Assembly (NCBI GenBank): GCA_052034235.1
Contig: JBPOIT010000005.1
Span: 49,698-113,697, forward strand
Reading direction: 5' to 3'
Length of the DNA stretch: 64,000 nt
Source of the DNA: Candidatus Levyibacteriota bacterium
GTDB taxonomy: Bacteria > Patescibacteriota > Microgenomatia > Levybacterales > UBA12049
The position numbers and the translations under genes were made by a program. The notes under the pieces are model-generated. The model worked only from the letters and a program-made list of their open reading frames with translations. It was not told the DNA's origin and made no database searches. This document shows positions 999-46,631 of this stretch, piece by piece (within the stretch, counting starts at the first letter, position 1; every line of letters starts with the position of its first letter).

Positions 999-1004
999 AT
1001 TATA
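999..1004 (-). promoter_or_regulatory. Extended -10 box (TGTTATAAT) 10 nt upstream of the ATG of the partial tagged gene; implies a leaderless transcript
   Basis: The minus-strand sequence upstream of ATG 988 reads GTGTTATAATACGTGGCATT-ATG. No Shine-Dalgarno motif is present. Confidence 0.4.
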
Positions 1005-1180
1005 ACACGACGTAGGTTATTTCTCACTACGCGTGAGCATATAACATAGAGTCGGGTGAGCTAAAGGCGATAAGCGTCACGGCTTGCACCAGTTTGCCTG
1101 ACCTTCAAAAAGTTTTTGATACGCGTACTCATTTAAACAAACAATTATATTACAATCTTTGGATACTTATATTTTTTGAA

Positions 1181-3640
1181 TTATTCGCTAGCTGAATTTT
1201 GGGGAGACATGTTTCTAAAAGCTTTTCGCGCAGCTAACTTTTTGATATTTTTGATAGAGCTTCCACCTACGGTGTATTCCCTTGGTTCTTCACCCGGTAT
1301 GGTAATACGAACAGTGCATGTAAATTTTCTTTCAGGTCCTGAAACCTCTGTTATTTCATAGTGTGGTTCCTCCCATCCTTGACGACTCGCTAACGTTTGC
1401 AAAGCTTCGAGATAATTTCCTTGATTAACATGTACAGGTCTATCTCTTCGTGGAACATTTGAATAAATGATATTTTCGTATTCCCTATTTGGCATATGAC
1501 TTCGTGCCTGCTTGAGAACATCTTTTGCAGCAGCAGTTTCAACTTGATTTCGACTGGATCCTGTAAATTCATGTGATTGAAGTGTCACATCTCCAAAAGT
1601 GACGCTTGCGGTAACTTTGAATAATGGGTTATCTGGTGGCCCTTCTTGTGTAACCTCATAATTCGGAGGATTCCATGACTTAGTTTTGCACATTTCCTTG
1701 AGTTTTTTCCTTAAATCTGTTGTGGTATATTTATCTTGTGAAACATCTTCAACAGGGCTTTGAGAAATTTTCGAAAGGACATTCCATAACGCTAATTGTT
1801 CAGATTTAGTTTGAGAATGAGCTGTGATTTGGTCAGAGGTCATCGGTGTATCACCTATCTGCATAGTTGCAGAAGTGGTAGATTGCGGTTCATACGCTAA
1901 TCCATGTTCCTGTGTTGTAAATTCTGGAGCAGACCATACTCCACGTTGCTCTCCTAACTGAACAATTTGAGGTGCTAATTGGGGATTTTCATAGATATGC
2001 GCAAGGACATCTGATTTTAATCTTGCAACGGATCCATCTTCCAATACCGTTCCTCGTAAAATCAAATACTGATCATATACTGATAATCTACCATCAATTA
2101 GTCTCCTTTGCACTTCTACTCCTACATTTTCCGGAATAACTCCATCACGAGAGGTATCCCTAACAACTCTCGTAAATAAACTTGGATCTACCGATCCTAA
2201 GTCTTTTTGCTTTTGCACTCTAGCTACTTCTCTTTTGGATTCAGCGACATAAAATTTTTTCGTATGTATTTTTTCATTTGTAGTTTGAGAATTTAATCTT
2301 CGTGCCATTTTATCGAGTTGGTCAGGTGTATAGGGAGACTCTTCACCTCGCATATGAGCTATAACTATTCTTTGATTCACCAAACTCGCATGAAGTCTGA
2401 GACCAATACCTCCAGGTGCGTAAGCATCAACACCCATGGCCATATGTCCTTCTGGTTCTACGCCGAATGAAGCTCTACCATAAAGGACTTGTAACCTATC
2501 ATTTACTTCGTCTAGTGGCTCTCCAGATTTATTCATTGCTGCATTTTGATATATTATTCTTATATCTTCTGAATCCGGATCACGTACTAATCCATGCTGA
2601 TTCCTGTAGAGTGCTGGTAAACCATGACGTGCCAAATACTTACCAAAAGCAGTATTTAATTTTATTTTTGCCTCTTGAACGATTTTATATCCTGTCATAT
2701 CTTGACCAACCTGAATGATATTTCCATCCTCATCAGTGGCTAATCCGCTTTGAGAATCATACATTACTAACGATCCTTTTCTTGATCGGTCTCTTTCAAG
2801 TGCATCCGCTACAGAGCTGAGTAATGTAGCTTCTCCAAAACGGGGATGACTCGGATCTTTGAGTATTTCACTAAATTCTTTAGGGCTCATTCGTCCTGCA
2901 CTCGTAAATGCCGTTTGGGTAATCGAGGTTTTATCACGATCATTAAATGGAACATGCAACGTCAGTGTTGGTCTTGTTTGTCCAGGTAATAAACTCAAAC
3001 GGGATGCTGACAATGGACGAGGCAGCATAGGTGTAACAGTATCACTACCTCGATACCCCGTGAAGCCTCTTGCTTCAGCTTCTACGTCAATAGCTGTATT
3101 CGGTCGAACAACAGCGGAGACCTCTGATACTGATACTTGTAACGTATGTGTATTTGCTGGTTCTGTTACCACACCAAGTCCATCATCTAAATCTTTTGCT
3201 GTACTCGGGTCAATAGTTATGCCGTGCACTTCTTCACGACCGGTAAGTATCGCTTTGAGCTTGGGTAATGCGGCAACTTCACGCATAACTTCTGGAGGAA
3301 ATTCAAAACGCTCCACAATACCCGTTGCTCTTACTCGCCGTGGAGATGAAGCAGGTGCGGGTTCCTGTGCTTGTGTTTCAAAAATGACTCCTCGATCTGC
3401 TGGTTTTGTAGTCGGAGGAGGTGTATCTGAGGTTTCCCGGGGCTTTTCAGGTTCTGCAGGAGTTAAGGATGCCTGAGGAGCACTGATCCCCGGAGTGCTA
3501 TCTCTTCCACGTAGAATGGCACGTGTGGGTTCATGAGTAGAGGAAATTGGCCCAAGATGTCGGAGACCATCAGCTCCCAATCGACTTGGTGGGACCGGAT
3601 AACTTGGTCTATCTTGACCTCCTGAAAATTCAACACCCAT
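1181..3640 (-). CDS. RNase II/R-family 3'-5' exoribonuclease (RNB domain) fused to two C-terminal dsRNA-binding domains. It has an N-terminal MGVEF tag and a Pro-rich linker
   Basis: RNB motif I: HGITIDPSTAKDLDDGLGV aligns to E. coli RNase II VTIDSASTEDMDDAL. TVTPMLPRPLSASRLSL aligns to FNIPMLPRELSDDLCSL. The C-terminus carries two dsRBD-like units (…GPPDNPLFKVTASV…AAAKDVL and …GPERKFTCTVRI…GGSSIKNIKKLAARKAF). No cold-shock or S1 domains are present. The N-terminal ~150 aa are low-complexity. Confidence 0.75.
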   Translation of the reverse strand: MGVEFSGGQDRPSYPVPPSRLGADGLRHLGPISSTHEPTRAILRGRDSTPGISAPQASLTPAEPEKPRETSDTPPPTTKPADRGVIFETQAQEPAPASSPRRVRATGIVERFEFPPEVMREVAALPKLKAILTGREEVHGITIDPSTAKDLDDGLGVVTEPANTHTLQVSVSEVSAVVRPNTAIDVEAEARGFTGYRGSDTVTPMLPRPLSASRLSLLPGQTRPTLTLHVPFNDRDKTSITQTAFTSAGRMSPKEFSEILKDPSHPRFGEATLLSSVADALERDRSRKGSLVMYDSQSGLATDEDGNIIQVGQDMTGYKIVQEAKIKLNTAFGKYLARHGLPALYRNQHGLVRDPDSEDIRIIYQNAAMNKSGEPLDEVNDRLQVLYGRASFGVEPEGHMAMGVDAYAPGGIGLRLHASLVNQRIVIAHMRGEESPYTPDQLDKMARRLNSQTTNEKIHTKKFYVAESKREVARVQKQKDLGSVDPSLFTRVVRDTSRDGVIPENVGVEVQRRLIDGRLSVYDQYLILRGTVLEDGSVARLKSDVLAHIYENPQLAPQIVQLGEQRGVWSAPEFTTQEHGLAYEPQSTTSATMQIGDTPMTSDQITAHSQTKSEQLALWNVLSKISQSPVEDVSQDKYTTTDLRKKLKEMCKTKSWNPPNYEVTQEGPPDNPLFKVTASVTFGDVTLQSHEFTGSSRNQVETAAAKDVLKQARSHMPNREYENIIYSNVPRRDRPVHVNQGNYLEALQTLASRQGWEEPHYEITEVSGPERKFTCTVRITIPGEEPREYTVGGSSIKNIKKLAARKAFRNMSPQNSASE

Positions 3641-3650
3641 ATAAGCCTAT

Positions 3651-3659
3651 ATTATACCA
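3651..3659 (-). promoter_or_regulatory. Extended -10 (TGGTATAAT) 10 nt upstream of the ATG of the RNB gene. It overlaps the stop codon of the upstream gene
   Basis: The minus strand reads TGGTATAAT-ATAGGCTTAT-ATG. The same TATAAT-ATAGGCTyTw-ATG arrangement precedes the 3652..4746 gene. Confidence 0.45.
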
Positions 3660-4746
3660 TCTTTCCTCCCGTTACCGCGAGGATTTTACTTACCTGTTCA
3701 TCAACTGCTTTTGCACTTACAGATACAATTAATTCTCTATATGCACTCTTACTTACCGATGATTCAAAAAATGGATCAAAAAATTTCTCTCTCGTTGGCC
3801 TAATCCTATCTCTAGCCTCACTTCTAATTATTCCTGTCACTTCTGCCCATCTACTTTCGCCACTTTCTTGGGCTGTTATAGTTAACGCAGATAAAAAATT
3901 TGTTAAATTATGAGTACTTACCGTTTTTGGATAAGAAGGTAATAAGTACTCATGACTATGCAAATTATGTAATCCTGAATAGGACAAATTTGGCCATGTA
4001 AATAATTCTACTAAATGATCAACACTTGGTGGGATTCTGTGATGCATATAAGGATTTATATAATCACATACTGATAATCGAACATTTGGAATTTCATCAA
4101 CAATTTTCCGTACTTTTTTATCAATTGCTGCATATTGATCTCTGGTCGGAGTCGGACCTCTCCCTGAATAAAATACAAGATCAAGATCAGCAGGTTTATT
4201 TTTCGAACTTGGTTGTACATATGTTCCCAATGCATCCCTAACAAGCATGCCACCTGATGCACCACTCCCTACAAGAACAAGCCCTGCACCTGTAAAACCG
4301 AACGTATTATACTGTGATTCCATTTCTCCTTCAACAACCTGCATAACTTTAGCAACATCTGGATGGGTGAGCTCATTCATGAGTTGTGTATGGTTAGCAA
4401 CTGCTTCAGCTATTGTAGTTACAGGTTCTCTGACGAGTGAAATAGCATTTTGACGTCGCTCTTCTAATTGATCAAGGGGCATGCGTCTTTGCGGGTTATC
4501 CCATGGTGTTTGAACACGATCCTGTACAAATCGAGCAACCCGTACACTTAACAATCGAGCAGCACCCGAAGTTCTAGATACTTCTGCTCTTTCACCATTA
4601 TCTTCAATTATTCCTCCATTTAAGGCTGTTGTTGGGGATAAAACATTAGGTATAGGTCCAATTCGTGACAATTCTTTCCACCCGCCTGAGTCTCTATTTG
4701 TTGTTACTCTTCTTTCAGAATTTCCTCTGACATTTTCTATCCCCAT
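3652..4746 (-). CDS. Tagged Pol-beta-superfamily nucleotidyltransferase whose head domain resembles poly(A) polymerase / CCA-adding enzymes
   Basis: Motif GGMLVRDALG…(16 aa)…DLDLV matches the PolyA_pol/CCA head signature GGxVRDxLLG…DxD. N-terminal MGIENVRGNSER tag. Confidence 0.45.
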   Translation of the reverse strand: MGIENVRGNSERRVTTNRDSGGWKELSRIGPIPNVLSPTTALNGGIIEDNGERAEVSRTSGAARLLSVRVARFVQDRVQTPWDNPQRRMPLDQLEERRQNAISLVREPVTTIAEAVANHTQLMNELTHPDVAKVMQVVEGEMESQYNTFGFTGAGLVLVGSGASGGMLVRDALGTYVQPSSKNKPADLDLVFYSGRGPTPTRDQYAAIDKKVRKIVDEIPNVRLSVCDYINPYMHHRIPPSVDHLVELFTWPNLSYSGLHNLHSHEYLLPSYPKTVSTHNLTNFLSALTITAQESGESRWAEVTGIIRSEARDRIRPTREKFFDPFFESSVSKSAYRELIVSVSAKAVDEQVSKILAVTGGKMV

Positions 4747-4756
4747 AAGAGCCTAT

Positions 4757-4765
4757 ATTATAACA
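4757..4765 (-). promoter_or_regulatory. Extended -10 (TGTTATAAT) 10 nt upstream of the ATG of the nucleotidyltransferase gene
   Basis: The minus strand reads TGTGTTATAAT-ATAGGCTCTT-ATG. Confidence 0.45.
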
Positions 4766-4933
4766 CAGCAATAATTTTTGTAAATTACTAGGAGATTCCA
4801 TATCAGGACAATTGGTTTTTCTTAATTTCACGCTTTTTAAAATATCACACTTTTGGTAGTAAAAAATTGCAAATCTATTTCACTAGGTGCTTGAGGATAG
4901 TATATTAATACAAGCTCATCACAATGAAAATGT

Positions 4934-7741
4934 CTATTCTTGAGTATTCCTTGCGCTTTGTTCACTCAGACGGATAAGTTGTATCATATATGCATCTTTT
5001 CTTGGTCCTTCTAGATTTCGGACAATATTCTCAAACGCCCTTAACGTTACCTCAGTATCCATTCCATAGCTTATTTGTTTTTCAACGAGAGATCGAAGTA
5101 ATATTACTCGTTGACTATCAGTTAATTTAGTTTCTGGTGAAATGAGTCTATTTTGTACTGTTGTAAATAGTGTTTCATTTGCAGGTAAAACCCGTATCAC
5201 ATCTATATCCCAATCAGTAACTTTAATATCCTCCAATGTGTGTAAAGCACCCTCAGTGTCACCAGTTTTTACCTGACCTTCAAAAAGCTTATGATACACA
5301 TACTCACTTAATACTGATTCTCCAATCTCTTCTTTAACTGTTTGGAATAATTGGTTACCCCCTATATCAATTTGTGCAACTGCTAGATCGAGTAAATACT
5401 CTTGTCTTTTTTCAGGCGAAAGAGTTCTATCAGCTCTTACTGAGACAGCACTCGCATCGATTTCCGCATTTAGTCTTTCTTTTTCAGCAGCAGGAGGTGG
5501 ATCTTCAGTATAGATATCCGCTAAATTTTGCATTGCCATAGTACGAAATTCACTACGCGTTTCACCGATAATCTCATATAATTCATTTTTATCAGCATCA
5601 GTTAAAATACCATATGATTTTAATCCATTTCTTGCTGCAATCGATCTTTCCTGTGGGTCTTTTATCGTTCTAATTTTATCCATAGCATTAGTTACATCTC
5701 TCTCGGCTTTAGTTGTATCTCCCGTTTGCATAGCTTTTTCTCCTGCTTCCATATATCCGTCAACTATAACACGAGAAAATTCATCTAAAGTAAAACTTCT
5801 TACAGCATCTGTGCTTTTCCCAATTCTAGCCAAATATGCATTTTGTATCCTGGCAACACCTAGTTTATCCCCATTAGCTGCATAAGTCCTCCCTAACTGA
5901 AATAATTGTATGAGTGCCATATCACTTTCAGAAATATCAAGTATGTGTGCTTCTGCTTGTGGATAGTGACTAGCTGAAGGTTCATCCATGTAGCGATCTG
6001 CTAATGCTTTAAGTAATGCATCTCGACTAATATTGTCTTCAGGATTTGTTTTCTTTTCCAAAGAACCAACAAGTTCCTCGGCATCCACCAATGTTAGTGA
6101 TTCTTCTCCAGGAGAGAAAATCGGAGTGTCAACACGCTCCCTATGTAACATTGCTGTATATATAGAAGCCTGTATTTCTACCAAACTGCTCCGAAGAATG
6201 CCATCAAGGTCACTATCTCCTGTATTAAATTCTACATAATCCATTTGATCAGCTATTGCTCTCGCTGTATCGATATACCCGGTTTGTGCGTATAAAATAG
6301 CTATATTCCCGCGCAACTCGTTTCTTGTTAGTTCAGGTATACTAAATTCATCTTCTACAAATTCTCCTACTTCAATTAGTTGTCTTGCTTTGTCCATCTC
6401 TGCTTTTTCACTCTCTGGAGAAATATTTGCAGCTAGTTTTGCCATCTTTATTTGAGTGTTAATAACACCTATTCCATGTGATTCACCAATGCCTTGTGAT
6501 AAAAAAGTGCTTGTCTCTCTGAATCCTTCAACCAAATCTTCCGGTGGAGGTAATTCCAATTCTTTGAATAAACTGAGTAGATAACCATATTTAAGCAAAC
6601 GTCTACCAGGTTCATCATCTGCGGCTGATCTTTGGAATTCTCCTATTAATGCTTGAGCTTTTGCTGCAGGATCGTATGGTTGACCTGATTCTGCTGTGAC
6701 TCCCCTTGCTTCAGGCAAAACTTCTTCCTGCCCCTCTTCTAGTGTAATTGCTGGCACAACACTCAGAGCAGGCCTTGCAGGAGGTGTTTCGTCGACCATA
6801 CTCTCATCAGTGTCATCTCCAGGATGGTGTATTACATCTCCGGGTGGAGCTGATACAGTTTGTTGTGCATCACCATCAGTAGTAGTCGGTGATCCGGGTA
6901 GAATTCCTTCAGGGACTTTTCTACCAGCCTTCGCGTAATCAACTTCAATCCACTCACGAACGACATCATTAGGGGGCTCTTTTCCTTCATGATCATTTCT
7001 ATATAACTTTTTTCTCCATTCTGTACGTTTTGAGATTATAAATTCTATTGAAGGCAGTTGAAACCTATCTCCTAAAGCTGGCTGTTCAATCACATCTCTT
7101 CCTTGTAACATAAAATCCTTCGGCTCAACTCTTAGTACCTCAGGATGAACGTTCAAATCCTCTGGAATTTCTTCACCTGCAACTCGAAAATATTCTCTCT
7201 TCCATCTTCTCACTTCATCTGGTGGAGGCTCGGTACCGTCATGCTCACTTCTATATTGCTCAGCTCGCCATCCTGATATTATTTCGATCATAACTGATAC
7301 TGGTGGTGTCGTTAGAGGTGCTGATGTTTTTTTTCTCTCTGCTGGAGGCTGAGGTACATCAGGTTTACCTGAGACTGGCTCTTCGGTAACTTCTGGCGGT
7401 TCTCCACCTGCTCTGCTTTCTGAAACTCTTGGTGGTAAGGTAGGTTCCACTCCTGTATCGCTTGGTGTAGGTTTATCAGGTGATACTTTTGGTCCTTCTC
7501 CATCTCCACCATTTCGTGGACCTTCTGCTGTAGCTGTAGGATAAATTCTCCCTTTTAAAGAACCGCCCGGTGGTATTGGTTGTCTACGTGTTTCAATCGT
7601 CGCTGGAATTTGAGGAGTTGCACCTAAATCAACACCAGCTCTCCGAATGCCAGAATCTATAGTCGGACGGGTACCTCCCACTCCCGAATTCCCAGTTTGT
7701 CCATCTAAGCCTCTTTTTCCTCCTTGCCCTTCAACTGCCAT
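4934..7741 (-). CDS. Tagged helical-repeat (TPR-like) protein. It has a duplicated W-rich ~45-aa motif and is a paralog of 7846..10158
   Basis: N-terminal MAVEGQGGKR tag plus a GVDLGATPQIPATIETRRQP motif. An internal duplication (ISGWRAEQYRSEHDGTEPPPDEVRRW / ISKRTEWRKKLYRNDHEGKEPPNDVVREW) is present. The long C-terminal alpha-helical region shares a motif with the next gene (LTDSQRVILLRSLVEKQISYG vs LTDSDRIILFQQIAEKQIQFG). Confidence 0.55.
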   Translation of the reverse strand: MAVEGQGGKRGLDGQTGNSGVGGTRPTIDSGIRRAGVDLGATPQIPATIETRRQPIPPGGSLKGRIYPTATAEGPRNGGDGEGPKVSPDKPTPSDTGVEPTLPPRVSESRAGGEPPEVTEEPVSGKPDVPQPPAERKKTSAPLTTPPVSVMIEIISGWRAEQYRSEHDGTEPPPDEVRRWKREYFRVAGEEIPEDLNVHPEVLRVEPKDFMLQGRDVIEQPALGDRFQLPSIEFIISKRTEWRKKLYRNDHEGKEPPNDVVREWIEVDYAKAGRKVPEGILPGSPTTTDGDAQQTVSAPPGDVIHHPGDDTDESMVDETPPARPALSVVPAITLEEGQEEVLPEARGVTAESGQPYDPAAKAQALIGEFQRSAADDEPGRRLLKYGYLLSLFKELELPPPEDLVEGFRETSTFLSQGIGESHGIGVINTQIKMAKLAANISPESEKAEMDKARQLIEVGEFVEDEFSIPELTRNELRGNIAILYAQTGYIDTARAIADQMDYVEFNTGDSDLDGILRSSLVEIQASIYTAMLHRERVDTPIFSPGEESLTLVDAEELVGSLEKKTNPEDNISRDALLKALADRYMDEPSASHYPQAEAHILDISESDMALIQLFQLGRTYAANGDKLGVARIQNAYLARIGKSTDAVRSFTLDEFSRVIVDGYMEAGEKAMQTGDTTKAERDVTNAMDKIRTIKDPQERSIAARNGLKSYGILTDADKNELYEIIGETRSEFRTMAMQNLADIYTEDPPPAAEKERLNAEIDASAVSVRADRTLSPEKRQEYLLDLAVAQIDIGGNQLFQTVKEEIGESVLSEYVYHKLFEGQVKTGDTEGALHTLEDIKVTDWDIDVIRVLPANETLFTTVQNRLISPETKLTDSQRVILLRSLVEKQISYGMDTEVTLRAFENIVRNLEGPRKDAYMIQLIRLSEQSARNTQE

Positions 7742-7749
7742 AATGCTCT

Positions 7750-7758
7750 ATTATAGCA
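7750..7758 (-). promoter_or_regulatory. Extended -10 (TGCTATAAT) 8 nt upstream of the ATG
   Basis: The minus strand reads TTTTGCTATAAT-AGAGCATT-ATG. Confidence 0.4.
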
Positions 7759-7845
7759 AAAACTAATTTATTTATATAATTTTATAAATAAACATAAATA
7801 AAGACTGCAATCAAAAATATCACTGGAAATTATATTTCCAAATAA

Positions 7846-10158
7846 TTACTTTGTTCCACTTTGTACATATAGGCGTACTAAATTGAATATAGATTCAATT
7901 TTTGATAGTTCATCGTCTTCCATAAAAACAACATCTCTCAAATCTCTTAAAGCTTTAGCGCTGTCAAATCCAAATTGTATTTGTTTTTCTGCTATTTGCT
8001 GAAATAAAATAATGCGGTCTGAATCTGTCAATTGTTCGTTTTCTGCCAGAACATCTTCATGAACACTAGTAATAAATGCTTCGTCGTTGGGTAAAAAATC
8101 TACCATGACTCCATACACCCAATTATTTTTATCCACTCTTTTCATTGTTTTCATTGCATCTTGATAGTCTCCGGTTTCAATTTGCGTACGAAATAATACA
8201 TTAGCACCATAATCACTTAACGGTGCATCTTGCATAGTGGTTTTTATCTCGTCATAGAGTGGATAAGTTCCATCAGTTGACATTCCTATTTGAGTATGTG
8301 CCAATTGAATTAAATTATCATTTCTATCCATAATACCTATCCTCGTATCTTTTTGTAGACTCGCTGCACAGGAAGTAAGCTCATCTTGTAACTGTTGTCT
8401 GTCTTGAGCAGAAGCTGTATCAGGCATTATGTTTGCAATACTTACAATAGCCTGTGTTCTATGATCATAATCAAATGTTCTGATAATTCCATACATTTCC
8501 CCTCTTATTTCAGGCGTGGAGAATGCTGGATAAGAAAAGCTTTCAACAACGGCTTTCATCTTTGTCCCATCATCGGTTATCTTACCAATTCCTTCCAAAG
8601 CGGCACGCGTATTCCCTGCTTGTAAATAACCCTCTACTTTAGAAACTATATTATTTTTCACATGATTACTCTTTGTCATCGGTAAATTATGAAATGAAGT
8701 TTCAATAGTTTCTGTAGCCCATCTTTCAATACGTTTTACTCCCACTTCATCACCATTTGCTGCATATGCTCTTACGATATGAGCAAGTTGAGGTAGAGCA
8801 AAATCAGGATTAAATATCTTACGAACACACACTTCAGCATCAGAATATTTCCCCGCATCTATTAAACTTTTTGTGACGTCAATTAGCAAGCTATCTCGTG
8901 CATCATGAGGATCAAATTCAGTAATTTTGTCGGGCATTAATGTAATCTCTTCAAAAACTTTTCGGACTGTAGGCGTTATTTCACCTGGTTGAGTAGGTGG
9001 TTTTACTTTGCGCTCTTGCCATATGTTATGGGCAGTTGCCATTGCCCACGATCCAAAGACATCACTCTTTGTCTTCATATCGGCATCCGGATCTTTGGAC
9101 ATTTTTAATAATTCATCGAGTACCTGCTGAGCTGAACCGACATCTCCAGTTGCTGAATAATTATCAGCAAGTCTATGTAACAATTTTGCTTTTATATCAA
9201 TAGCCGATTGTGTTTCTTGACTGAATGTTCCTGTTGTAATCTTACTTTTTGCCTCTGCAAAATGTGCACGTGCCTCATCATCAAGTTCTGTACCGCTTAA
9301 TAAATGCCCTACATCAATTAATCTATCGACTTCCAACTTTTTTGTTGGTGCGTCTTGAAGTTTCATCATATCTTCATACGCAGTCTCAATATCTCGACGT
9401 ATCTTCTCATCATATGGAAAATGACGTTTTTTTCTTTCTTCACCAATTAATATAAGTCGTCTCGACCGTCTTTCTAAAGATAGTTCAATCGTTGTTAATC
9501 GCATCGCATCAAGTATGCCCTCAGCTTCTACAATTGGATCAATTTTTTCAGGCGGCTTTGTAGCTTCTACCTTACGAGTTTCTTTCTTTTTTGTAACTTG
9601 TTGAGGGACTTCAAGGTTTGTATCTGCAGGTTCTGGTAAAACTACAGTCCAATGAATTTCTCTAGGGGTAGATCGTCCATCTGTCAATGAAGTGTCCCTA
9701 ACTACTTGTAAATGACGAGGAGTAGTTCCTGCTGGAGCTTCCACGGGTTCTAATCGAGTATCATCAGATGGTATCTGTGGTTTTTTTCCGATATTATTAT
9801 GAGGAGATTCACCAGATGGAGGATCTCCTGATACTGGTAAGCCTGAAGTATCTGAATCACTACGAGAATCTCCGACAGGAGGGGTGATTGTTGGAACATC
9901 CGGTTTCCCATCATGAACTATCGAACTCGGACCGTCTCCTGGGGTATCACCTGATGCTGCTCGAGGTATTGTTACACGATTTGTGTCAATACCCCCTGGT
10001 AAAGTTGGAGGAGTAACATGAGTAGTTATTCTTGCTCTTAAGTTCCTAGATGGTCCTAAATCAACACCTTTCCGGGACAATCCACTACCGAGGACCCTAT
10101 CTTTCCGTTTTGTGTCAAGAATTCCATTAGGTCTATCTCCGCTGTTTTCAATAGTCAT
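7846..10158 (-). CDS. Tagged helical-repeat (TPR-like) protein, paralog of 4934..7741
   Basis: N-terminal MTIENSGDRPNG tag and an RKGVDLGPS motif. The C-terminal half is homologous to the previous gene (AYAANGDEVGVKRIE vs TYAANGDKLGVARIQ). Confidence 0.55.
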   Translation of the reverse strand: MTIENSGDRPNGILDTKRKDRVLGSGLSRKGVDLGPSRNLRARITTHVTPPTLPGGIDTNRVTIPRAASGDTPGDGPSSIVHDGKPDVPTITPPVGDSRSDSDTSGLPVSGDPPSGESPHNNIGKKPQIPSDDTRLEPVEAPAGTTPRHLQVVRDTSLTDGRSTPREIHWTVVLPEPADTNLEVPQQVTKKKETRKVEATKPPEKIDPIVEAEGILDAMRLTTIELSLERRSRRLILIGEERKKRHFPYDEKIRRDIETAYEDMMKLQDAPTKKLEVDRLIDVGHLLSGTELDDEARAHFAEAKSKITTGTFSQETQSAIDIKAKLLHRLADNYSATGDVGSAQQVLDELLKMSKDPDADMKTKSDVFGSWAMATAHNIWQERKVKPPTQPGEITPTVRKVFEEITLMPDKITEFDPHDARDSLLIDVTKSLIDAGKYSDAEVCVRKIFNPDFALPQLAHIVRAYAANGDEVGVKRIERWATETIETSFHNLPMTKSNHVKNNIVSKVEGYLQAGNTRAALEGIGKITDDGTKMKAVVESFSYPAFSTPEIRGEMYGIIRTFDYDHRTQAIVSIANIMPDTASAQDRQQLQDELTSCAASLQKDTRIGIMDRNDNLIQLAHTQIGMSTDGTYPLYDEIKTTMQDAPLSDYGANVLFRTQIETGDYQDAMKTMKRVDKNNWVYGVMVDFLPNDEAFITSVHEDVLAENEQLTDSDRIILFQQIAEKQIQFGFDSAKALRDLRDVVFMEDDELSKIESIFNLVRLYVQSGTK

Positions 10159-10167
10159 AATATACTT

Positions 10168-10176
10168 ATTATACCA
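10168..10176 (-). promoter_or_regulatory. Extended -10 (TGGTATAAT) 9 nt upstream of the ATG
   Basis: The minus strand reads AAATGGTATAAT-AAGTATATT-ATG. Confidence 0.4.
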
Positions 10177-10222
10177 TTTTTGTTCAAAATATTATAAGAC
10201 TTTAATAAGAACATAACAACTT

Positions 10223-11032
10223 TTATTGGGAGTATTGATACATCAGCAACGTGTGGTAATCATCCGGTTCTACTATGGGGCTTTGAAGCGAATGAAAACC
10301 TTGTGGAGTTAATACAGGAGAGAGATCACCTTTGACTAAATTGGGGAAAATAACCACTATTCCATTTGGTTCAAGCGCATTTGGTAATAAAGACGCAAGT
10401 TGTGCTACCTCTATGGGAGTACTCAGAACATATTCCATTCCAAATACTGTCACGATATCAGTTTTGGGAATTCCAAGAGTATTTAAATAACTATCTATAT
10501 CTTCTTCAACTATTTGACCCGTAAATCCTGACTCATTTAGACCCTCTCTTGTTAAGTGAGAAAAACCTTTATCAACTAGTGTCATATGCGACAAATCAAT
10601 ACCCAATGTTTCTGCAAACGCTTGTTCTCCTTGTGCCTTACCAGCTCCGAGAGCGAGATACGTTGGTCTCTCAGGCAATGTAAATCCACTTTTATGAATT
10701 TTCCGAAGCAATTCTTTTGCAATACTAATACCTCTTTGAGGAGAGGTAACATCTTCAAAATTATCCCTCCGATCTATAGTACGACCACTTATCTTTATTC
10801 TATCTGAGACACCACTTGCATTTTCTACAGATGCTTCACCATTTCTTTTCTGATGAAGTTCAGTTCCTAGATGAATAGATTGTGTGTATGTGGTAATAAT
10901 TGATCTATGTGTGGCAGGATTATCGGTTATCTGACCACTATGAGTTGTTCCCACATCTTTACCAGAATCTATTAGTTGTGGAATCTTGAATGTTGTTGAA
11001 ACCCTACCTGACTTTGCTATTTCGATACCCAT
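10223..11032 (-). CDS. Tagged class I SAM-dependent methyltransferase
   Basis: Motif I is YLALGAGKAQG (hhhGxGxxG). An acidic post-I residue follows (TLVDKG). C-terminal motifs are IVTVFGMEYV and LEPNGIVVIF. The N-terminal MGIEIAKSGR tag is followed by IDSGKDVGTTH…PATHRS, which resembles motif 2 of the tag. Confidence 0.5.
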   Translation of the reverse strand: MGIEIAKSGRVSTTFKIPQLIDSGKDVGTTHSGQITDNPATHRSIITTYTQSIHLGTELHQKRNGEASVENASGVSDRIKISGRTIDRRDNFEDVTSPQRGISIAKELLRKIHKSGFTLPERPTYLALGAGKAQGEQAFAETLGIDLSHMTLVDKGFSHLTREGLNESGFTGQIVEEDIDSYLNTLGIPKTDIVTVFGMEYVLSTPIEVAQLASLLPNALEPNGIVVIFPNLVKGDLSPVLTPQGFHSLQSPIVEPDDYHTLLMYQYSQ

Positions 11033-11043
11033 ACGTGTGGCTT

Positions 11044-11052
11044 TTTATAGCA
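11044..11052 (-). promoter_or_regulatory. Extended -10 variant (TGCTATAAA) 11 nt upstream of the ATG
   Basis: The minus strand reads TTTGCTATAAA-AAGCCACACGT-ATG. Confidence 0.35.
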
Positions 11053-11109
11053 AACTTAGACAAAAAGAGGATATTTTATATATTTTTGGATTTGGGATGA
11101 GAAACTAAA

Positions 11110-11445
11110 CTATTTTACAGCACCTTTTTTTGGTTTTTTCGCAAATCTTTCTTCAGCTCGACTTACTGCTAATTGTCCTGGCCCAGCAATGGTGGCTTTA
11201 GTTTCGTCTCCTCCCGCACTCGCGGTAATTACTGCTTTCCCGCCTTGCACCTCACCTTTAACAGCTGCAATAACATTAGGTTTTGCACCTGTCGTTCTAA
11301 GAATTTGCCTAGTCTCAGCAACAGCACCTCTCTTAAATAAAGTACCACCAAGAACTAACTTAGCATGTCTTTCTGCTTTTTTAGCTTCTCTCAGTTCTTT
11401 ATTTGTAGGCACTGCACCTGGTTTTTTCCCACCTTCTACTGACAT
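11110..11445 (-). CDS. Tagged small basic (K/A/G-rich) protein, possibly nucleic-acid binding
   Basis: Sequence MSVEGGKKPG…AKKPKKGAVK shows a strongly basic, histone-tail-like composition. TATAAT lies 9 nt upstream of the ATG. Confidence 0.4.
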   Translation of the reverse strand: MSVEGGKKPGAVPTNKELREAKKAERHAKLVLGGTLFKRGAVAETRQILRTTGAKPNVIAAVKGEVQGGKAVITASAGGDETKATIAGPGQLAVSRAEERFAKKPKKGAVK

Positions 11446-11454
11446 AATATAAAC

Positions 11455-11460
11455 ATTATA
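11455..11460 (-). promoter_or_regulatory. -10 box TATAAT 9 nt upstream of the ATG
   Basis: The minus strand reads GCTTATAAT-GTTTATATT-ATG. Confidence 0.35.
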
Positions 11461-11766
11461 AGCGTAAAATATTTTTTGTCAAGATGGAATATAGGACTTC
11501 TCTAAACGAGGTGGCTCATAACCAGAAAAATATGACCTTGAACTAATTCAGACAACTAGCATCTGAAGAATGAATCATAAAGTCACCAAAGACAAATTAC
11601 CATCAGTTGAGGGAGAATTCTGTTGCTGATTTTTTCACCCTGAAATGTACATTTCTCCTTATGAATACTTACTAATTGCATTATGTGTTGTATCAACTCT
11701 TTAAGAGTACCCTAATTTACTACATATATAATTCCAATATACCTTGTAATAGTATGCTATAAGTCT

Positions 11767-11772
11767 TATAAT
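11767..11772 (+). promoter_or_regulatory. -10 box TATAAT 7 nt upstream of the ATG of the + strand tagged gene
   Basis: The sequence reads CTTATAAT-TCACCCC-ATG. Confidence 0.4.
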
Positions 11773-11779
11773 TCACCCC

Positions 11780-12865
11780 ATGCGAGAAATAAAAAATGGA
11801 GGAGATAGATTACCAGATAAAAAAGGTCGAAGGCACGATGTAACTGTACCTCAAACATGGTCAGATTTAATAGGTGGTCCAGACAAAACACCTCGACCTA
11901 GGGCTACAATTGAAACTAGACGTCCCGTTGATGTCGAATATAGTCGTGTAAAAGTCCCCTTTGAAAGAGAAGAAAGAGAAGAATTACTTACTCAACTTAC
12001 GGTAAATCCAGGAGATGGTATTGCTGAAGTACATAATCCCTATCCAATAGCCGTTGTAGGCGTAAGAATAGATCATCATGGGCAAGCTCAACATATCAAA
12101 TTCGTCCAAACCAGAAATGGACTTATCATGCCTATACCAGACAATCCAAATAGTGAAGATACTCTTATTGGTTTTTTTGTGGGTAGGCGACGAGTAAATG
12201 GTGGTGGTGCAGTTGCTCTTCGTGACAGTAGATATCCATCTATTGATCCTCAGTATCGTACAAAACCTCTTGCACGACAAGACGACCCAACAGGTGATCT
12301 CGCATCCTTTAAACCAACCCAACCCACTGATTTATCAAGACCATATCTCGGTGCTGTCCTCCGTCAAGGTGACTATCCAGCTGTTCCACTTGTTACAGCA
12401 GAAATAGATGGTACGTATAAAGAATTATTAAGTCGATTGGATGGCATACGGCCAGGAAATCGATGGCATTATGCTCAAGATGTCGGACTATTTCAAGAAT
12501 TAGGATTTGATCCCAACAATACTGAAGGCCTTTTTGATAAATCTCATAAAGATAGTCTATCGGCACAAGAGCAACATGTTAGAGAAATTGTAATACAACA
12601 GCATCAGTCTAAACGTCATTCAACTGGTATTTCACCTAACAGATTTGAGTTACTTGTTTATAATACTCGTCGAGATATAAGACCCGAACCAAACTCTGTC
12701 ACATCAACTGATCATTTAAGGGATGCACGTACTGGTGAAGCTCCTTTAGAAATTAAATACACCCGGGGGAGACGAATTAGTTGCCCTCCTAGCACTCCAT
12801 CTATAGTTTACTCACTTGCAGCAGCATTCCCTATCCAAGTAGTTTCCGAATGGGATGGGATATAA
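11780..12865 (+). CDS. Tagged hypothetical protein (variant tag MREIKNGGDR). It carries the ATIETRRP motif shared with 4934..7741
   Basis: An ORF with a Pro-rich N-terminus. PRPRATIETRRPVD matches PQIPATIETRRQP of the 4934..7741 protein. No recognisable catalytic domain. Confidence 0.45.
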   Translation: MREIKNGGDRLPDKKGRRHDVTVPQTWSDLIGGPDKTPRPRATIETRRPVDVEYSRVKVPFEREEREELLTQLTVNPGDGIAEVHNPYPIAVVGVRIDHHGQAQHIKFVQTRNGLIMPIPDNPNSEDTLIGFFVGRRRVNGGGAVALRDSRYPSIDPQYRTKPLARQDDPTGDLASFKPTQPTDLSRPYLGAVLRQGDYPAVPLVTAEIDGTYKELLSRLDGIRPGNRWHYAQDVGLFQELGFDPNNTEGLFDKSHKDSLSAQEQHVREIVIQQHQSKRHSTGISPNRFELLVYNTRRDIRPEPNSVTSTDHLRDARTGEAPLEIKYTRGRRISCPPSTPSIVYSLAAAFPIQVVSEWDGI

Positions 12866-12968
12866 TTTTTTTAGTAATTTCCACCTCTAATCAGTTTTTT
12901 TAATATACGAGTAGTAAACCACATGAGGTAGTAATAGTTACTTTAAAATGGGGGGAAGATGTGTAATG

Positions 12969-13460
12969 CTATTTGAATATTGATCGAGCTTTCCTTTTTT
13001 GGTGGCGTTCAGCTTCTTTTCGACTTTTATTACTATTAACTATACCAGCTGCTATTCTTGCACGACGTCTCGCTTTTTGACTCCCTTTTCCGAATTGAAA
13101 TACTGGCATTACTTCACCATTCGCATTTTGTGTTGTACTAACAAATTTTGTAGGAGTAAATGGTCCTAGACGACTCAATTTATGCATTTCTTTTTTTAGT
13201 CTTATACGATCCCCTATTTGAGGGCCTGTTCTCACAGCACTGCCAATTACAGTGCGTGCACTATGAATAGGTTTTTTGGGTGGTGTAATATCTACAGGTT
13301 TGGATGGGCTCAAATCTACGGGAGCACCTCTAAAAGTAGCACGACCAGGATGTGTAGTTGCATCAACACCTGCATGTGAGGTAGTTCCTGATGAAGTATC
13401 AGCTGGACGTTTCCATTTAAGACCTTCAAAACCTTTTCCAAATCTTGTTTCTGCACCCAT
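12969..13460 (-). CDS. Tagged small basic protein with an R/K-rich C-terminus
   Basis: Sequence MGAETRFGKG…HAGVDATTHPGRAT…ARRRARIAAG…RKEAERHQKRKARSIFK. Confidence 0.45.
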   Translation of the reverse strand: MGAETRFGKGFEGLKWKRPADTSSGTTSHAGVDATTHPGRATFRGAPVDLSPSKPVDITPPKKPIHSARTVIGSAVRTGPQIGDRIRLKKEMHKLSRLGPFTPTKFVSTTQNANGEVMPVFQFGKGSQKARRRARIAAGIVNSNKSRKEAERHQKRKARSIFK

Positions 13461-13466
13461 ATTTTC

Positions 13467-13494
13467 ATTATAGGATATTTAAACTTCTTGTCAA
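13467..13494 (-). promoter_or_regulatory. Consensus sigma70-type promoter TTGACA-16 nt-TATAAT ending 6 nt before the ATG, giving a leaderless mRNA
   Basis: The minus strand reads TTGACA AGAAGTTTAAATATCC TATAAT GAAAAT ATG. Both hexamers are a perfect match to consensus. Confidence 0.55.
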
Positions 13495-13513: not shown

Positions 13514-16500
13514 CTATGGATCTACATCTAAGTCACCAGCAAGTTCGAGTAATATGTCTCTCAATCTTTCTCTTCCGGATCGAGTTGAATCTGGAACAGC
13601 TGTAGTTGTACCAGCTCTTCTTTTTTCTTCAATAGAACTTGTAACAATCTCACGTACCTGAGCATTAACCTCTTGGGTTACGTATTTTGTAATAGCTTCC
13701 TCATACATCCCATAAAGCATCGTTAGCGCCATTTTACTACCCGGATCTGTTGGATCTTCAAAATATTTTACTAAATATTCTCTCAGTCCCTCTAGAAATG
13801 GAATAGTATAAGTGTTTGTGGCTAATGTCGCATCGATAATTTCTTTATTGAGTTCAGTATCATAATAATGTTCTGGAGTAATTACACCGGGGGCAAGAAC
13901 CTTGGCTGCTAATCTATTTGCGACACTTTCCATATCGTGCATAATCGGTATTCCAACTGCCCGCTCTACTGGAATGAAAATAGCTCCTCTGGACATGACA
14001 ACTTTAGGATAAAATAAGTCTCTATCATTCACAACTGTTCCAATTCCTGGCAAATCAAATAACTGTCTACTTAAGCGACTTGCTCCTTCTGGAGTTGTAG
14101 AAGCTAATATGACATTAATATCATGTTGTATCCCTAATCCACTTGTTTCGTCAGTAATACTAGCAAGACTTTCTATCTGGTTTCCTACAGGCATATTGGG
14201 ATCACGATATGAAAGTTTATGCACAATTAAATCCCACATTTCGAGAAAAGCTTGTTGTTCTACTGCTGTCAAACCAGGTATTGGATGTCCTAATATTTTT
14301 TCCCATTTATCAGAGTCTGTAAATCGTTCTCTTACCGCTTCTTTTATAACAAGCTCTCTTTGTTCATGAATATGAGTATCAATTTGCATTATCAATGCTT
14401 CTAAGACCTTTCTTTTTGAACTTTCTTTATCAGTTGATTCGTATTCTTGAATTAGTTTATCTCTTTGCTCGTCTGCAGTAGAATTTGGTAATGTAATACC
14501 ATATTCTTGCGTTTGAGCTTCAAGACCATCTAGAGCTCCAATAACTAGACGCTCAAGAGGAGCGCTAGCTATTGCTTCTACTTCCTGACGAACCAGCTCT
14601 TTCGGGGTATCATACATACTTGATTGTGGCATAGATTTGGAATCGAACCAGGGATCAATTGTTTTTTCTAAGACTACAGGAGTCCGACCTGGGATAGAAA
14701 TTTCCTCAGTATATGTTGTAGGTTCAGTTGCATTCGGGATACGTCTTCCCCCAGTAGGATCTGATAGATGATACCATACAGCAGCATAGAGAGAATCTTT
14801 AATGTCTTGAGAGGATTTCTGTAATCTCCATATTTCTTCAGAACGTGCTTCAACAATTTTATCGATACCAACTTCCAAAGCAGTTTGTATTATCCTCCTC
14901 GTTTCTGGATCATTTATCTTATGATTATAGAATTTATAAGGATCTCCAGAATTTCCTCCACCGGGGACTTCCTTAAAACCTAGAAATCGTACACCATTAA
15001 CTTTTGAATCAAAAGCGGCATTAAGTATGCCAATTAATTTCCGCGACCACCAGTCTTCTCCACCCAAATATTTCAGTGCTTCTGAGTATTCTTTTTTTGT
15101 ATATGCTATTCCGGATGGCCCCAGATCATACAGACGCCCTTCAGGAGATACGACTAAATCAACACGAGATGGTAGATTTGCTGGATCATCAACACGAATA
15201 CAAAAAGGATCACCTTTATCTACTCTACCTATCATTGTTCCATTAGGTAAATGCCTTAATACATTTCGCGATTGTTCAGGAATACCTAGGCTATCTCCCA
15301 TTACACTAATGTCTGTTTCATCACCTAAACTAAATGTTCCTCTGAATCTGGCACTTGACAACATACTTCTTGGTGCATGACGTGGTTCTTGTCCTATATA
15401 CCAAACTGTATAACCAAATTTTCCACCTTGTAGTACATGTTCTTCCAGAATACTCGCAACTGGACTTGGACTTGTGCTATTGTTTGTGGAAGTAGCTTGC
15501 TGGCCTTCTTCTGCAATAACCAAATTAGTTAACGGACGTGGTGCAGCACTAAGTGGATCTTTCTCAAGATAAGCTTTTTCTGCAACATAATTTGTCGTTA
15601 CTGCGACAAATAATTGCTGTGCTGCAGCAGAAAGAGCATTTGTGTTTATAACAAGATTATCATCGGTAAGAGTATTTGGATCTACAGTATGATTACTATT
15701 AAATCCATCTGCACCAAATATTTCACCCAAATTTCTTTCCAACCAACCTAGGATTCTTGATTGATACTCGCCACCCTCCCCATCATATTTCAATCCTTCT
15801 TTAACAAATTTCTTACAATAATCATAGATTTCATCATTTGATGGATATAACCCTGTATCTTTATACTTATCTTTAAGACCTTTAAATGTTTTATCCAAAG
15901 AAACACCTTCTGCCAATTTTCCAGGCTTCATGCCAATTATCGCTCCATTTAAAACACTTCTAAACAAAGCTTTATCCCCGTCATCTCCTTCAAAAGTGCT
16001 CGCAAGTAAATCTGGCAAAGCAGCATAATGTTTATCCTCAGAATATCCATCAATGGGTCTGGCAAGGCTTCCAAATCCAACTGAGACATCAGCATCCCCT
16101 GCGACGACATTCCAATATATTACCTCTTTACCAGTATCTCTTATCCTATCTCCAAGAAGTCGCCAATCTTCTGCACCACTCGGAGCAAGAACAATAACTT
16201 GCATCCCTTCTCTAACCGCTCTTTCTGCAAGTTGCTGCGTAAATACTGATTTACCTTCTCTTGGTCGGCCCAACACTGTAACACCTAGCAATTGTTCTGT
16301 TGAAATCGGCAATTCCCCAAGATCTGGGCCACGATTTATGCCTAAAGCTGCATTCACAGCGGTACCAAGTCTGATCATTCGTGTTCCATCAGAAAATGTA
16401 GGAAGAACAGTGTTTGTTGTAAGTGGTCTATCATAGTCAAATCCTTTAACTTGTGTTGTTGGATATCTCATCAACTCTGCTAATTGTCCACTACTAACTA

Positions 16501-17821: not shown

Positions 17822-17943
17822 ATTTTACAGTTTATCATTATGAATCTTATAGTTTAAATGTACGATTCTTCAGATAAAGGAGTATTATACTATAATTTGC
17901 TATATATAGATAGATATAATATAATGAGTCGTTATTTATTAAT

Positions 17944-19874: not shown

Positions 19875-20936
19875 CTACAATTGAGAATAATCACTAACAC
19901 TCATTACCGTATAAGCAGCACTTGATACCTTACCATTAAGAGTGATATCCATATGACTATCTTTGATACCAGTTACATAATCAGGATATGAAAGACCTGA
20001 AACTCTAGCTGCTACTGCTGCACCATAAGAATTCGATGCTATCTCTTGTACAATTCTAGCTGCTAGTTGCATTGCAGCATCTGGATTATTTGGTGCAATT
20101 GTTAATATTCTCAGTCTTGTGTGATCTGTGGGAACCATATCAACTGTATTATTAAATGCCTCAACAGCCAATCCATATACACTCCCATCAAGGTTCATTT
20201 TTCCTACTTTTCGCTTACCAACACCCAATTCAAAATAACTTTCACGTAGAGCAGGATTATCTGGCTTAATGACAGTAAACGCTTTAGCATCTGGATTCGC
20301 CGATCCTGAGATATCCACACCTACATCTTTAACATCTTTTACAATTTTAAATACGTGTCGTTGTACACGTTCTGCTGGAGTAATAGTAAAAGTCAAAGAA
20401 TCCGCCGCTGGTCCTTCTCCAAGCGGTAAAGAAACTTCAGGTTTATGTTTACTATACGTTTCAACTTTTTTATAAGCCGTATTTACATTTTGTGAATTAT
20501 ACGCAGTTCCTTCGGTTGAGACTCCGTTTTCTACTTGCAGAATCACAGCAACCGGTATTCCATCATTCCCAGGAGTGCTTAGAAGTGTTTGTTCCGGATT
20601 AAAACGTAAAGGTTTTTGTGCAGATGATTCTTGTGATTTTGCTTGAGAACCCGATGTAACAGCATGAGATTCTGGTGGATAAACTTGACCATCTGTCCCA
20701 GCACAACCACTTAATGCAAAAACTGCTGCACCAACAGCTGCCGCACCGGTTGTAACTACTCTTCCTGATCTTCTATGAGTTTCACCAAAATGTAATTTTG
20801 ATGTTATAACTGCCGGTTGTGGTTTAGGTTCATCCGTCACTTGACCTTGAGTACGTATCTGCGACCCAGAGATGCGTGATTCCGATAAAGATGTGGGTCG
20901 ATTTAATATGGATCTCCCAGTTTCTTGAAAAGCCAT
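19875..20936 (-). CDS. Putative lipoprotein or membrane-anchored protein
   Basis: N-terminus MAFQETGRS. A hydrophobic segment VVTTGAAAVGAAVFALSGC ends in a lipobox-like LSGC. Confidence 0.4.
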   Translation of the reverse strand: MAFQETGRSILNRPTSLSESRISGSQIRTQGQVTDEPKPQPAVITSKLHFGETHRRSGRVVTTGAAAVGAAVFALSGCAGTDGQVYPPESHAVTSGSQAKSQESSAQKPLRFNPEQTLLSTPGNDGIPVAVILQVENGVSTEGTAYNSQNVNTAYKKVETYSKHKPEVSLPLGEGPAADSLTFTITPAERVQRHVFKIVKDVKDVGVDISGSANPDAKAFTVIKPDNPALRESYFELGVGKRKVGKMNLDGSVYGLAVEAFNNTVDMVPTDHTRLRILTIAPNNPDAAMQLAARIVQEIASNSYGAAVAARVSGLSYPDYVTGIKDSHMDITLNGKVSSAAYTVMSVSDYSQL

Positions 20937-22683: not shown

Positions 22684-22821
22684 ATAGACATATTATAGTA
22701 CTAAAACGGATATTGTCAATGTGTATATTAGTACTAATCTGAATAGTGGATCAGTTGGGAAATTTGCGTATAAATAAGATTGGGCTTTGATTTATACTAT
22801 CTATGCATAAGAATTGAGGCT

Positions 22822-22868: not shown

Positions 22869-22929
22869 AATCCCGAAATATTGTTAGAATTATATTATTT
22901 AGAACTTTATTAGTTTCAATATATATCTG

Positions 22930-44580: not shown

Positions 44581-44631
44581 GGAGCATTTTCCAAACTGCT
44601 TCAAATAAAAAAATTTGTTATACTCTTCTCA

Positions 44632-46586: not shown

Positions 46587-46631
46587 AAAGAAAGTAAGTG
46601 TTTTTTAATTATCTCTGCTATAATTATTTAT

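Follow-up and report, generated by a model that had tools for sequence, protein, structure and literature searches.

Where does a messenger RNA begin when a promoter box lies almost upon the start codon, and does such a layout mark one set of genes or the ordinary habit of a genome? The question is raised by a 64,000-nucleotide (nt) stretch of contig JBPOIT010000005.1 from a Candidatus Levyibacteriota bacterium (assembly GCA_052034235.1), hereafter referred to as the window. The left 18 kb of the window is occupied by a run of mostly minus-strand genes, the products of which begin with M-[GAST]-[VIA]-E, a short tag (MGVEF, MGIEN, MAVEG, MTIEN, MGIEI, MSVEG, MGAET and MSWEF and, from the plus strand, MREIK). 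Behind the tag come long stretches rich in proline, glycine and threonine. At nine of these tagged genes a -10 hexamer lies close to the ATG. The boxes are, in our judgement, likely to be functional promoters of the sigma-70 type which would give leaderless or near-leaderless mRNAs, an arrangement that would be the default for first genes of transcription units here and in related genomes and not a speciality of the tag. As defined in Mycobacterium tuberculosis, leaderless transcripts carry a 5' untranslated region (UTR) of 5 nt or less (PMC3898074).

The nine genes all lie on the minus strand except the one starting at 11780, and coordinates throughout are window positions (Table 1). The original prediction placed a TATAAT, once TATAAA, 6-11 nt upstream of each ATG, and every one of the nine spacings was reproduced to the base. 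Its further details also held: six hexamers bear the TGn extension, with TG one base before the -10 hexamer (TGT, TGG, TGT, TGC, TGG and TGC in table order), the gene at 13460 has a textbook TTGACA-16-TATAAT promoter, to which a second perfect case at 11445 can be added, and one -10 box does run across the stop codon of the gene upstream. In the latter case the intergenic gap is only 11 nt, and the TATAAT of the downstream gene contains the TAA stop (3652-3654) of the 3652-4746 gene (AAG ATG GTA TAA T). A sequence unit said to be shared by two adjacent genes, TATAAT-ATAGGCTyTw, is correct as far as TATAAT-ATAGGCT, while the ending is slightly off, the tails being TAT and CTT. At ATG 13460 the A of the start codon occupies exactly the canonical +1 position. 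The gene at 988, which runs past the left edge of the window, has a weak -35 element, GTGAGA, at 17 nt. Of the nine boxes, TGCTATAAA before ATG 11032 is the weakest, its hexamer TATAAA having A for T at the last base. Upstream of ATG 10158 there is, in addition to the close TGGTATAAT, a second promoter-like site in tandem (TTGTTA-17-TATAAT, 10191-10219, minus strand, 32 nt upstream), so that one gene may be expressed from a leadered as well as a leaderless transcript.

Table 1. Promoter-like elements close to gene starts and tRNA genes in the window; the distance is that between the element and the start of the gene.
Gene class	Element	Position	Strand	Distance	Gene or product
Tagged	-10 TGTTATAAT	hexamer 999-1004, 9-mer 999-1007	-	10 nt to ATG 988	MAVEGQGG
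Tagged	-10 TGGTATAAT	hexamer 3651-3656, 9-mer 3651-3659	-	10 nt to ATG 3640	RNB and double-stranded RNA-binding domain protein, MGVEFSGG
Tagged	TTTACA-16-TG(T)TATAAT, -10 = TGTTATAAT	4757-4784, hexamer 4757-4762	-	10 nt to ATG 4746	MGIENVRG
Tagged	-10 TGCTATAAT	hexamer 7750-7755, 9-mer 7750-7758	-	8 nt to ATG 7741	MAVEGQGG, 935 amino acids (aa)
Tagged	-10 TGGTATAAT	hexamer 10168-10173, 9-mer 10168-10176	-	9 nt to ATG 10158	MTIENSGD
Tagged	-10 TGCTATAAA	hexamer 11044-11049, 9-mer 11044-11052	-	11 nt to ATG 11032	MGIEIAKS
Tagged	TTGACA-16-TATAAT	11455-11482, hexamer 11455-11460	-	9 nt to ATG 11445	MSVEGGKK
Tagged	TTGTAA-17-TATAAT	11744-11772, hexamer 11767-11772	+	7 nt to ATG 11780	MREIKNGG
Tagged	TTGACA-16-TATAAT	13467-13494, hexamer 13467-13472, TTGACA 13489-13494	-	6 nt to ATG 13460	MGAETRFG
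Tagged, layout like the nine, beyond the range of the original prediction	-10 TGATAAACT	17829-17837	-	7 nt to ATG 17821	1435-aa P-loop protein, MSWEFLKG
Untagged	TTGACA-16-TATAAT	22692-22719	-	8 nt to ATG 22683	AAA/DUF4143 ATPase
Untagged	TGTTATACT	44616-44624	+	7 nt to ATG 44632	weak Pfam matches only (Glyco_hydro_42, DUF4434)
Untagged, divergent pair (46557-46624)	TGTTATGAT	46557-46565	-	9 nt to ATG 46547	bestrophin-like
Untagged, divergent pair (46557-46624)	TGCTATAAT	46616-46624	+	7 nt to ATG 46632	HAD hydrolase
Untagged	TGCTACAAT	52719-52727	-	7 nt to ATG 52711	aldose-epimerase-like
Untagged	TGTTACAAT			6 nt to GTG 56263
Untagged	TGATATACT			6 nt to ATG 60759	no Pfam match
tRNA	TGGTATAAT	57328-57336	-	13 nt upstream of the gene	tRNA-Glu (57239-57314)
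tRNA	TGGTATAAT	58167-58175	+	upstream of the gene	tRNA-Lys(TTT) (58249-58321)

The composition of the boxes follows a pattern familiar from bacterial transcription. A classical sigma-70 promoter carries either the TGn extension or a -35 element, and TGnTATAAT needs no -35. The three boxes without TGn are all accompanied by a -35 element (TTGACA, TTGACA and TTGTAA) at 16-17 nt, matching the combined consensus at 12/12, 12/12 and 10/12 positions, while four of the six TGn boxes lack a -35 match of at least 4/6. A role of these hexamers at the RNA level would not produce such an either/or relation, and the boxes are therefore read as sigma-70 promoters. The absence of Shine-Dalgarno (SD) sequences from the nine genes, a further element of the original prediction, was also borne out, none of the motifs GGAG, GAGG, AGGA, GGGG or GGTG being present at -18 to -4 (0/9 genes). 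With regards to the start codons, no other precedes the ATG in its open reading frame (ORF) at any of the nine genes except that at 988, where an in-frame GTG lies upstream. The N-termini are identical in public gene calls for all 11 tagged proteins looked up, namely eight of the nine (all but that at 988) together with those of genes g17821, g17944 and g20936.

Positional enrichment was assessed with the 50 gene starts of the 64-kb window, which is the part of the genome covered. An exact TATAAT lies 6-11 nt upstream of 10/50 gene starts, compared with 9/2131 other ATGs (0.4%; binomial p = 1.6e-14). When the box was relaxed to at least 5/6 positions of TAnnnT at 5-12 nt, 19/50 starts were found to carry it, whereas 2000 shuffles of the upstream regions gave 5.9 +/- 2.2 and never more than 14, and TGnTAnnnT at the same distances precedes 15/50 starts where 0.64 would be expected from its overall density, a ca. 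23-fold excess. The histogram of box-to-start spacings peaks at 6-10 nt. SD-like motifs, on the other hand, occur at 6/50 starts against 4.3 +/- 1.9 in shuffles, that is, at chance level. The complete TGnTATAAT 9-mer is present at ten sites in the window and all of them are plausible as promoters: five belong to tagged genes, one to the untagged gene at 46632, two to the genes for tRNA-Glu and tRNA-Lys(TTT), and two to a long intergenic gap. Strong promoters are to be expected at tRNA genes, and because the same 9-mer precedes these genes it is probably the strong-promoter consensus of this organism.

The long gap just mentioned measures 592 nt and lies upstream of the gene at 20936. Its two exact extended -10 boxes, TGATATAAT (21154-21162) and TGGTATAAT (21387-21395), are both on the minus strand, and downstream of them no ORF reaches 50 aa. 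Small RNAs or small ORFs could be expressed from these boxes; when the window and the gap were scanned with Rfam, only tRNAs came up.

The same layout is found well outside the tagged set. The 50 genes were classed by upstream gap and orientation, with a box defined as a -10 of at least 4.3 bits at 5-12 nt from the start. Such a box precedes 23/39 candidate first genes of transcription units (9/14 tagged, 14/25 untagged), compared with 2/11 operon-internal genes, with no significant difference in spacing between the tagged and untagged groups (p = 0.35). What does differ is the -10 score, which is higher in tagged genes (Mann-Whitney p = 0.006), and the frequency of exact TATAAT (8/15 tagged vs 2/35 untagged; Fisher p = 4e-4). 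Since score and exact-box frequency differ and spacing does not, the tagged genes are distinct by promoter quality and not by promoter position. The six further genes judged tag-like (g17821, g17944, g20936, g27442, g29753 and g61248) lead to a similar view, the arrangement being missing in four of them: at g17944 the gap is 18 nt, g27442 carries an SD-like GGGGG, and no box lies near g20936 or g61248. The close -10 layout is thus not supported as a tag-specific property. The original prediction had proposed to test whether TATAAT-N6-11-ATG is enriched specifically in tagged genes, and had stated that other genes (uvrA, rnhB, rsmB-like) have longer gaps between box and start. Such specificity of the arrangement is not supported by the window scan or by the relatives described below. 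The statement on gaps remains correct for uvrA, which has a 20-nt gap, and for rnhB, which is operon-internal, but not for the rsmB-like ORF, where a TATAAT stands 6 nt before an in-frame ATG, nor for the many other untagged genes with the same close spacing.

Related genomes extend the observation beyond a single contig. The UvrA protein of the window is 79-80% identical to that of several metagenome-assembled genomes (MAGs), one of them labelled Candidatus Levyibacteriota, and ca. 60% identical to that of Gottesmanbacteria, Woesebacteria and Microgenomates MAGs, which assigns the window to the Microgenomates group. A survey of the lineage by pattern counts and spot checks comprised 83 loci (80 UvrA loci and L001-L003), in which TATAAT-N6-11-ATG gave 132 matches compared with 82 for an N26-31 control; in spot checks of three loci, 5-6/18 of the close matches stood at ORF starts vs 0/5 of the controls. 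Individual cases include TTGACA-16-TATAAT-6-ATG and TATAAT-6-ATG in L003, TGCTATAAT-8-ATG and TATAAT-6-ATG in L030, TGATATAAT-11-ATG in L052 and, in the Woesebacteria locus L016, a TATAAT that overlaps the stop codon of the preceding gene and lies 6 nt from the ATG, plus a second case. In L004, whose UvrA is 80% identical to that of the window, a box lies at 5-12 nt at 6/16 genes and at 13-20 nt at 6 more, with an SD-like motif at 0/16. Locus L003 is 98-100% identical to the window in the compared regions and is too close to inform on conservation. The more diverged L089 (83-90% nucleotide identity) is informative in this respect: the region upstream of the orthologue of the gene at 44632 cannot be aligned except for AAAAAAATTTGTTATACTCTTCnCAATG, a footprint which consists of the extended -10 (TGTTATACT), the 7-nt spacer and the ATG, nothing else upstream of this gene being conserved. 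The TATAAT of uvrA with its spacer of ca. 20 nt is likewise conserved between diverged flanks. Homologues of the tagged proteins were also sought for promoter comparison, without yield: the 1435-aa protein had no relative in genome or viral contigs and a word-indexed search returned only itself, the RNB protein had no relative above 31% identity, and no close relatives of the tagged proteins were found among billions of public proteins.

From the observed anatomy of the boxes, their positional enrichment, the missing SD sequences, the recurrence at untagged genes and in relatives, and the footprint, we infer promoter activity, start-site position, promoter strength and translation mode. A holoenzyme of the sigma-70 type would bind either the extended -10 or the -35/-10 pair, and transcription would begin ca. 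6-9 nt past the hexamer, either on the first base of the AUG or 1-5 nt upstream. With a start ca. 7 nt past the box, as the original prediction assumed in placing transcript ends at or near the AUG, the nine spacings fit a predicted 5' UTR of 0 nt (13460 and 11780) to ca. 5 nt. Ribosomes would then initiate on the 5'-terminal AUG without an SD interaction. Since an ORF that lacks an SD sequence would be translatable mainly at the 5' end of an RNA, each gene would need its own promoter, even across a gap of 11 nt. The boxes of the tagged block are near consensus, like the two tRNA promoters, and are probably strong. Read-through RNAs probably exist alongside and stand outside this model. The view that every gene in the block is independently and probably strongly transcribed is accordingly retained in part: each gene has a putative promoter of its own, while strength is deduced from closeness to consensus, and read-through is likely since no terminators are detectable between the genes.

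Three other explanations have to be weighed against leaderless expression, one being that the boxes reflect chance or composition, since TATAAT-like hexamers are common where intergenic sequence is AT-rich and the genome has 38% GC. The two strands of the window together do contain 87 TATAAT, many of which are intragenic, and a generic -35/-10 scan is not enriched (62 vs 55.8 +/- 6.2 in shuffles). Chance of this kind would nevertheless have to account for a positional enrichment at 6-11 nt from true starts with p ~1e-14, for the excesses over shuffled regions and over the density of TGnTAnnnT given above, and for the footprint preserved in a diverged strain, and we give it hardly any credence. 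A different possibility is that the block is read as one or a few polycistronic transcripts, in which UAUAAU would act as an A/U-rich, unstructured region for SD-independent initiation or would be inert, and would not be a promoter. Initiation of this sort on A/U-rich leaders exists in other bacteria, the genes are co-oriented with one gap of 11 nt, and no intrinsic terminators separate them, intergenic folds being no more stable than those of shuffles. An A/U-rich enhancer, however, leaves unexplained the exact register of TGn, the perfect TTGACA at 16 nt precisely where TGn is missing, and the occurrence of the same 9-mer before tRNA genes, which are not translated. Furthermore, the nine gaps range from 11 to 334 nt, eight being at least 53 nt, which is not operon-like; each of the nine genes has a consensus box and no SD sequence, and the divergent genes at 11445 and 11780 cannot share a transcript. 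Polycistronic expression is, on this balance, an unlikely account of the locus.

The remaining alternative, equally doubtful in our estimation, treats the close -10 and the first codons (ATG-GNN-RTN-GAR) as one tag-specific unit, in which the needs of leaderless translation would restrict the tag at the RNA level, as the original prediction had suggested of the codons. It draws on the concentration of exact boxes and the higher -10 scores among tagged genes, on the glutamate at position 4, which is always encoded by GAA, and on the tagged-like genes of a sister strain, which carry TGnTATAAT 11-12 nt upstream. Against it stand the equal frequency of the relaxed -10 at untagged first genes with indistinguishable spacing, the four of six further tag-like genes that lack the arrangement, and the start codons of the untagged leaderless-type genes, which are followed by unrelated codons 2-4 (MLQR, MTKA, MTLW, MEMF, MNEK and MEAY). 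A 98% repeat shared by two tagged genes, moreover, begins 5 nt upstream of the ATG and leaves the boxes out. The GAA bias, considered as a sign of RNA-level constraint, is explained by genome codon usage, GAA making up 78% of glutamate codons. Strings of GGAGG at codons 6-8 were likewise considered as a signal and set aside; they follow from Gly-Gly encoded with GGA and have no start codon downstream.

Leaderless expression from start-adjacent promoters, the reading we prefer, has several points counting against it. Spacings of 9-11 nt among the nine genes would correspond, with a start 7 nt past the box, to leaders of 3-5 nt, which are not strictly leaderless. Nothing convincing was found as a terminator between tagged genes, and longer read-through transcripts probably coexist, the translation of which would need another mechanism. 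The TATAAA box of ATG 11032 is without the near-invariant final T. Among untagged genes, some of the lower-scoring boxes (4.4-5 bits) may be due to chance in AT-rich upstream regions, shuffles giving ca. 6/50. Finally, although the M-x-x-E tag is conserved from the assigned ATG onward, the starts were set by ORF logic and public gene calls and not by proteomics.

While the layout is general, the genomic setting of the tagged genes is particular. A sister-strain contig, L084, matches the window at 95-96% identity as far as position 22929, the exact 3' end of tRNA-Lys(CTT) (22929-23001, minus strand), at which point similarity ends. This places the whole tagged block (window 1-22928) in a strain-variable island beside a tRNA gene. 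Beyond the tRNA, L084 (7996-14173) carries other tagged-style genes, such as one beginning MRHGIEAG with TGCTATAAT 12 nt upstream, and its 1434-aa homologue of the 1435-aa protein of the window is only 25-28% identical to the latter. The block is a strain-variable island of fast-evolving genes, each with its own compact expression signal. L084 also has an extra gene (4206-4835, minus strand) for a 209-aa protein beginning MRHLEVSS, with its own TGATATAAT 11 nt upstream, placed between two genes which abut in the window (~25942); it looks like a one-gene cassette, inserted or deleted. A 358-bp repeat of 98% identity (636-993 and 7389-7746) covers the first ca. 118 codons of the two MAVEG genes (ATGs 988 and 7741), beginning 5 nt upstream of the ATG with the -10 boxes outside, and the two proteins diverge after residue ~124. 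The N-terminal module of these genes thus appears to have been exchanged by recombination. A weaker match (1087-1136 vs 5260-5311, 85%) resembles a piece of a former coding region left behind between genes.

Several of the tagged proteins invite comment in their own right. The 1435-aa protein (13514-17821, minus strand), which begins MSWEF and heads the tagged block, has a Walker-A-like GREGKS and no Pfam match; an exhaustive HMMER search of 1.8 billion representatives gave seven distant relatives, the best 28% identical. Three tagged proteins, encoded at 1181-3640, 3652-4746 and 10223-11032 on the minus strand, have enzyme-like C-terminal parts, one having an RNB exoribonuclease domain and two double-stranded RNA-binding domains according to Pfam, while a nucleotidyltransferase-like GS..DLD in another and a methyltransferase-like LGAG in a third were recognised by eye. 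As a set, the tagged proteins resemble effectors or toxins that share an N-terminal tag. The product of 19875-20936 (minus strand) begins with a tag-like MAFQE, and a lipoprotein-type signal (..AVFALSGC..) comes only after ca. 75 residues; this points either to an internal signal peptide or to a mis-set start. Elsewhere in the window, a 902-aa protein (52772-55480, minus strand) ends in a Peptidase_S74 (endosialidase chaperone) domain and is conserved in related strains; this domain is usual in phage tail fibres.

Start codon annotation may be affected at other places too. The rsmB-like ORF is called from ATG 43621, and its TATAAT (43627-43632) lies inside the called frame. An in-frame ATG, 43639, stands 6 nt past this box and six codons into the ORF. 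The segment 43621-43641 is conserved in the diverged strain while the upstream DNA is not, and relatives have a 50-aa ORF with a 4-nt overlap at the annotated start. Translation may in truth begin at 43639. For the bestrophin-like gene (45669-46586) public gene calls are split between TTG 46586 (305 aa) and ATG 46547 (292 aa), and the presence of TGTTATGAT 9 nt before the latter favours the shorter form. At least one start in the window is probably mis-set, that of the rsmB-like ORF, with the choice between 46586 and 46547 as a further candidate. Gene starts and operon boundaries of the lineage would be better called with a leaderless-aware model.

The expression style itself is a known one. 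Leaderless genes are recognisable by a TA-like signal ca. 10 nt ahead of the start (Zheng et al., PMC3160421), and the genomes designated group C by GeneMarkS-2, mostly Actinobacteria and Deinococcus-Thermus, have a Pribnow box 6-8 nt from the start in 25-50% of operons and utilise ribosome-binding sites (RBS) for their other genes (10.1101/193490). In Deinococcus, reporter fusions demonstrated that a -10 motif adjacent to the start codon acts as a promoter (PMC12340547). The window resembles these groups in its Pribnow-type box ca. 6-10 nt before first genes, its AUG starts without SD and the comparable share of genes involved, 23/39 candidate first genes here against 25-50% of operons there. 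It differs from group C in that SD-like motifs are at chance level, where those genomes use RBS for other genes, and in that several spacings are 9-12 nt, suggesting leaders of 3-6 nt. In contrast to the GC-rich actinobacteria, with their loose TANNNT, this AT-rich genome has the full, E. coli-like TATAAT with frequent TGn. The lineage is also a different one, the Microgenomates group of the Candidate Phyla Radiation (CPR), or Patescibacteria.

Extended -10 promoters of E. coli and Gram-positive bacteria provide a second comparison, sharing the TG one base upstream of the hexamer and the dispensable -35, as in the TGn boxes described above. Those promoters are not systematically placed against the start codon, whereas the boxes reported here are systematically start-adjacent. 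Leaderless mRNAs of E. coli and its phages, such as lambda cI and Tn1721 tetR, are a third, having a 5'-terminal AUG and no SD, as is predicted here. They need an AUG start and are rare exceptions in an SD-dominated genome, while in the window most candidate first genes have this arrangement. A literature search combining leaderless or SD terms with CPR, Patescibacteria and Saccharibacteria found nothing on the topic; its coverage lacks most subscription journals, so that this is absence of evidence only. The observation is thus of a known expression style, a -10 next to the ORF, in a lineage for which no published description was found.

For the tagged genes, the promoter layout is better not counted as part of the tag, and what is specific to them is the combination of a consensus-strength promoter for each gene with residence in a hypervariable island. 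A broader claim would join the two halves of this analysis: that a whole branch of the CPR, the Microgenomates, expresses its genes mainly through leaderless or near-leaderless mRNAs from extended -10 promoters, with SD sequences nearly unused, and that the strain-variable island beside the tRNA gene is made of cassettes, each a promoter of ca. 20 nt and an SD-less ORF for a fast-evolving M-x-x-E protein, which can be inserted or swapped singly. We advance the joint claim tentatively, leaning slightly against its holding in every part. If true, a major uncultured radiation with reduced ribosomes would join the few bacterial groups that rely on leaderless translation, a prediction addressed to metatranscriptomes.

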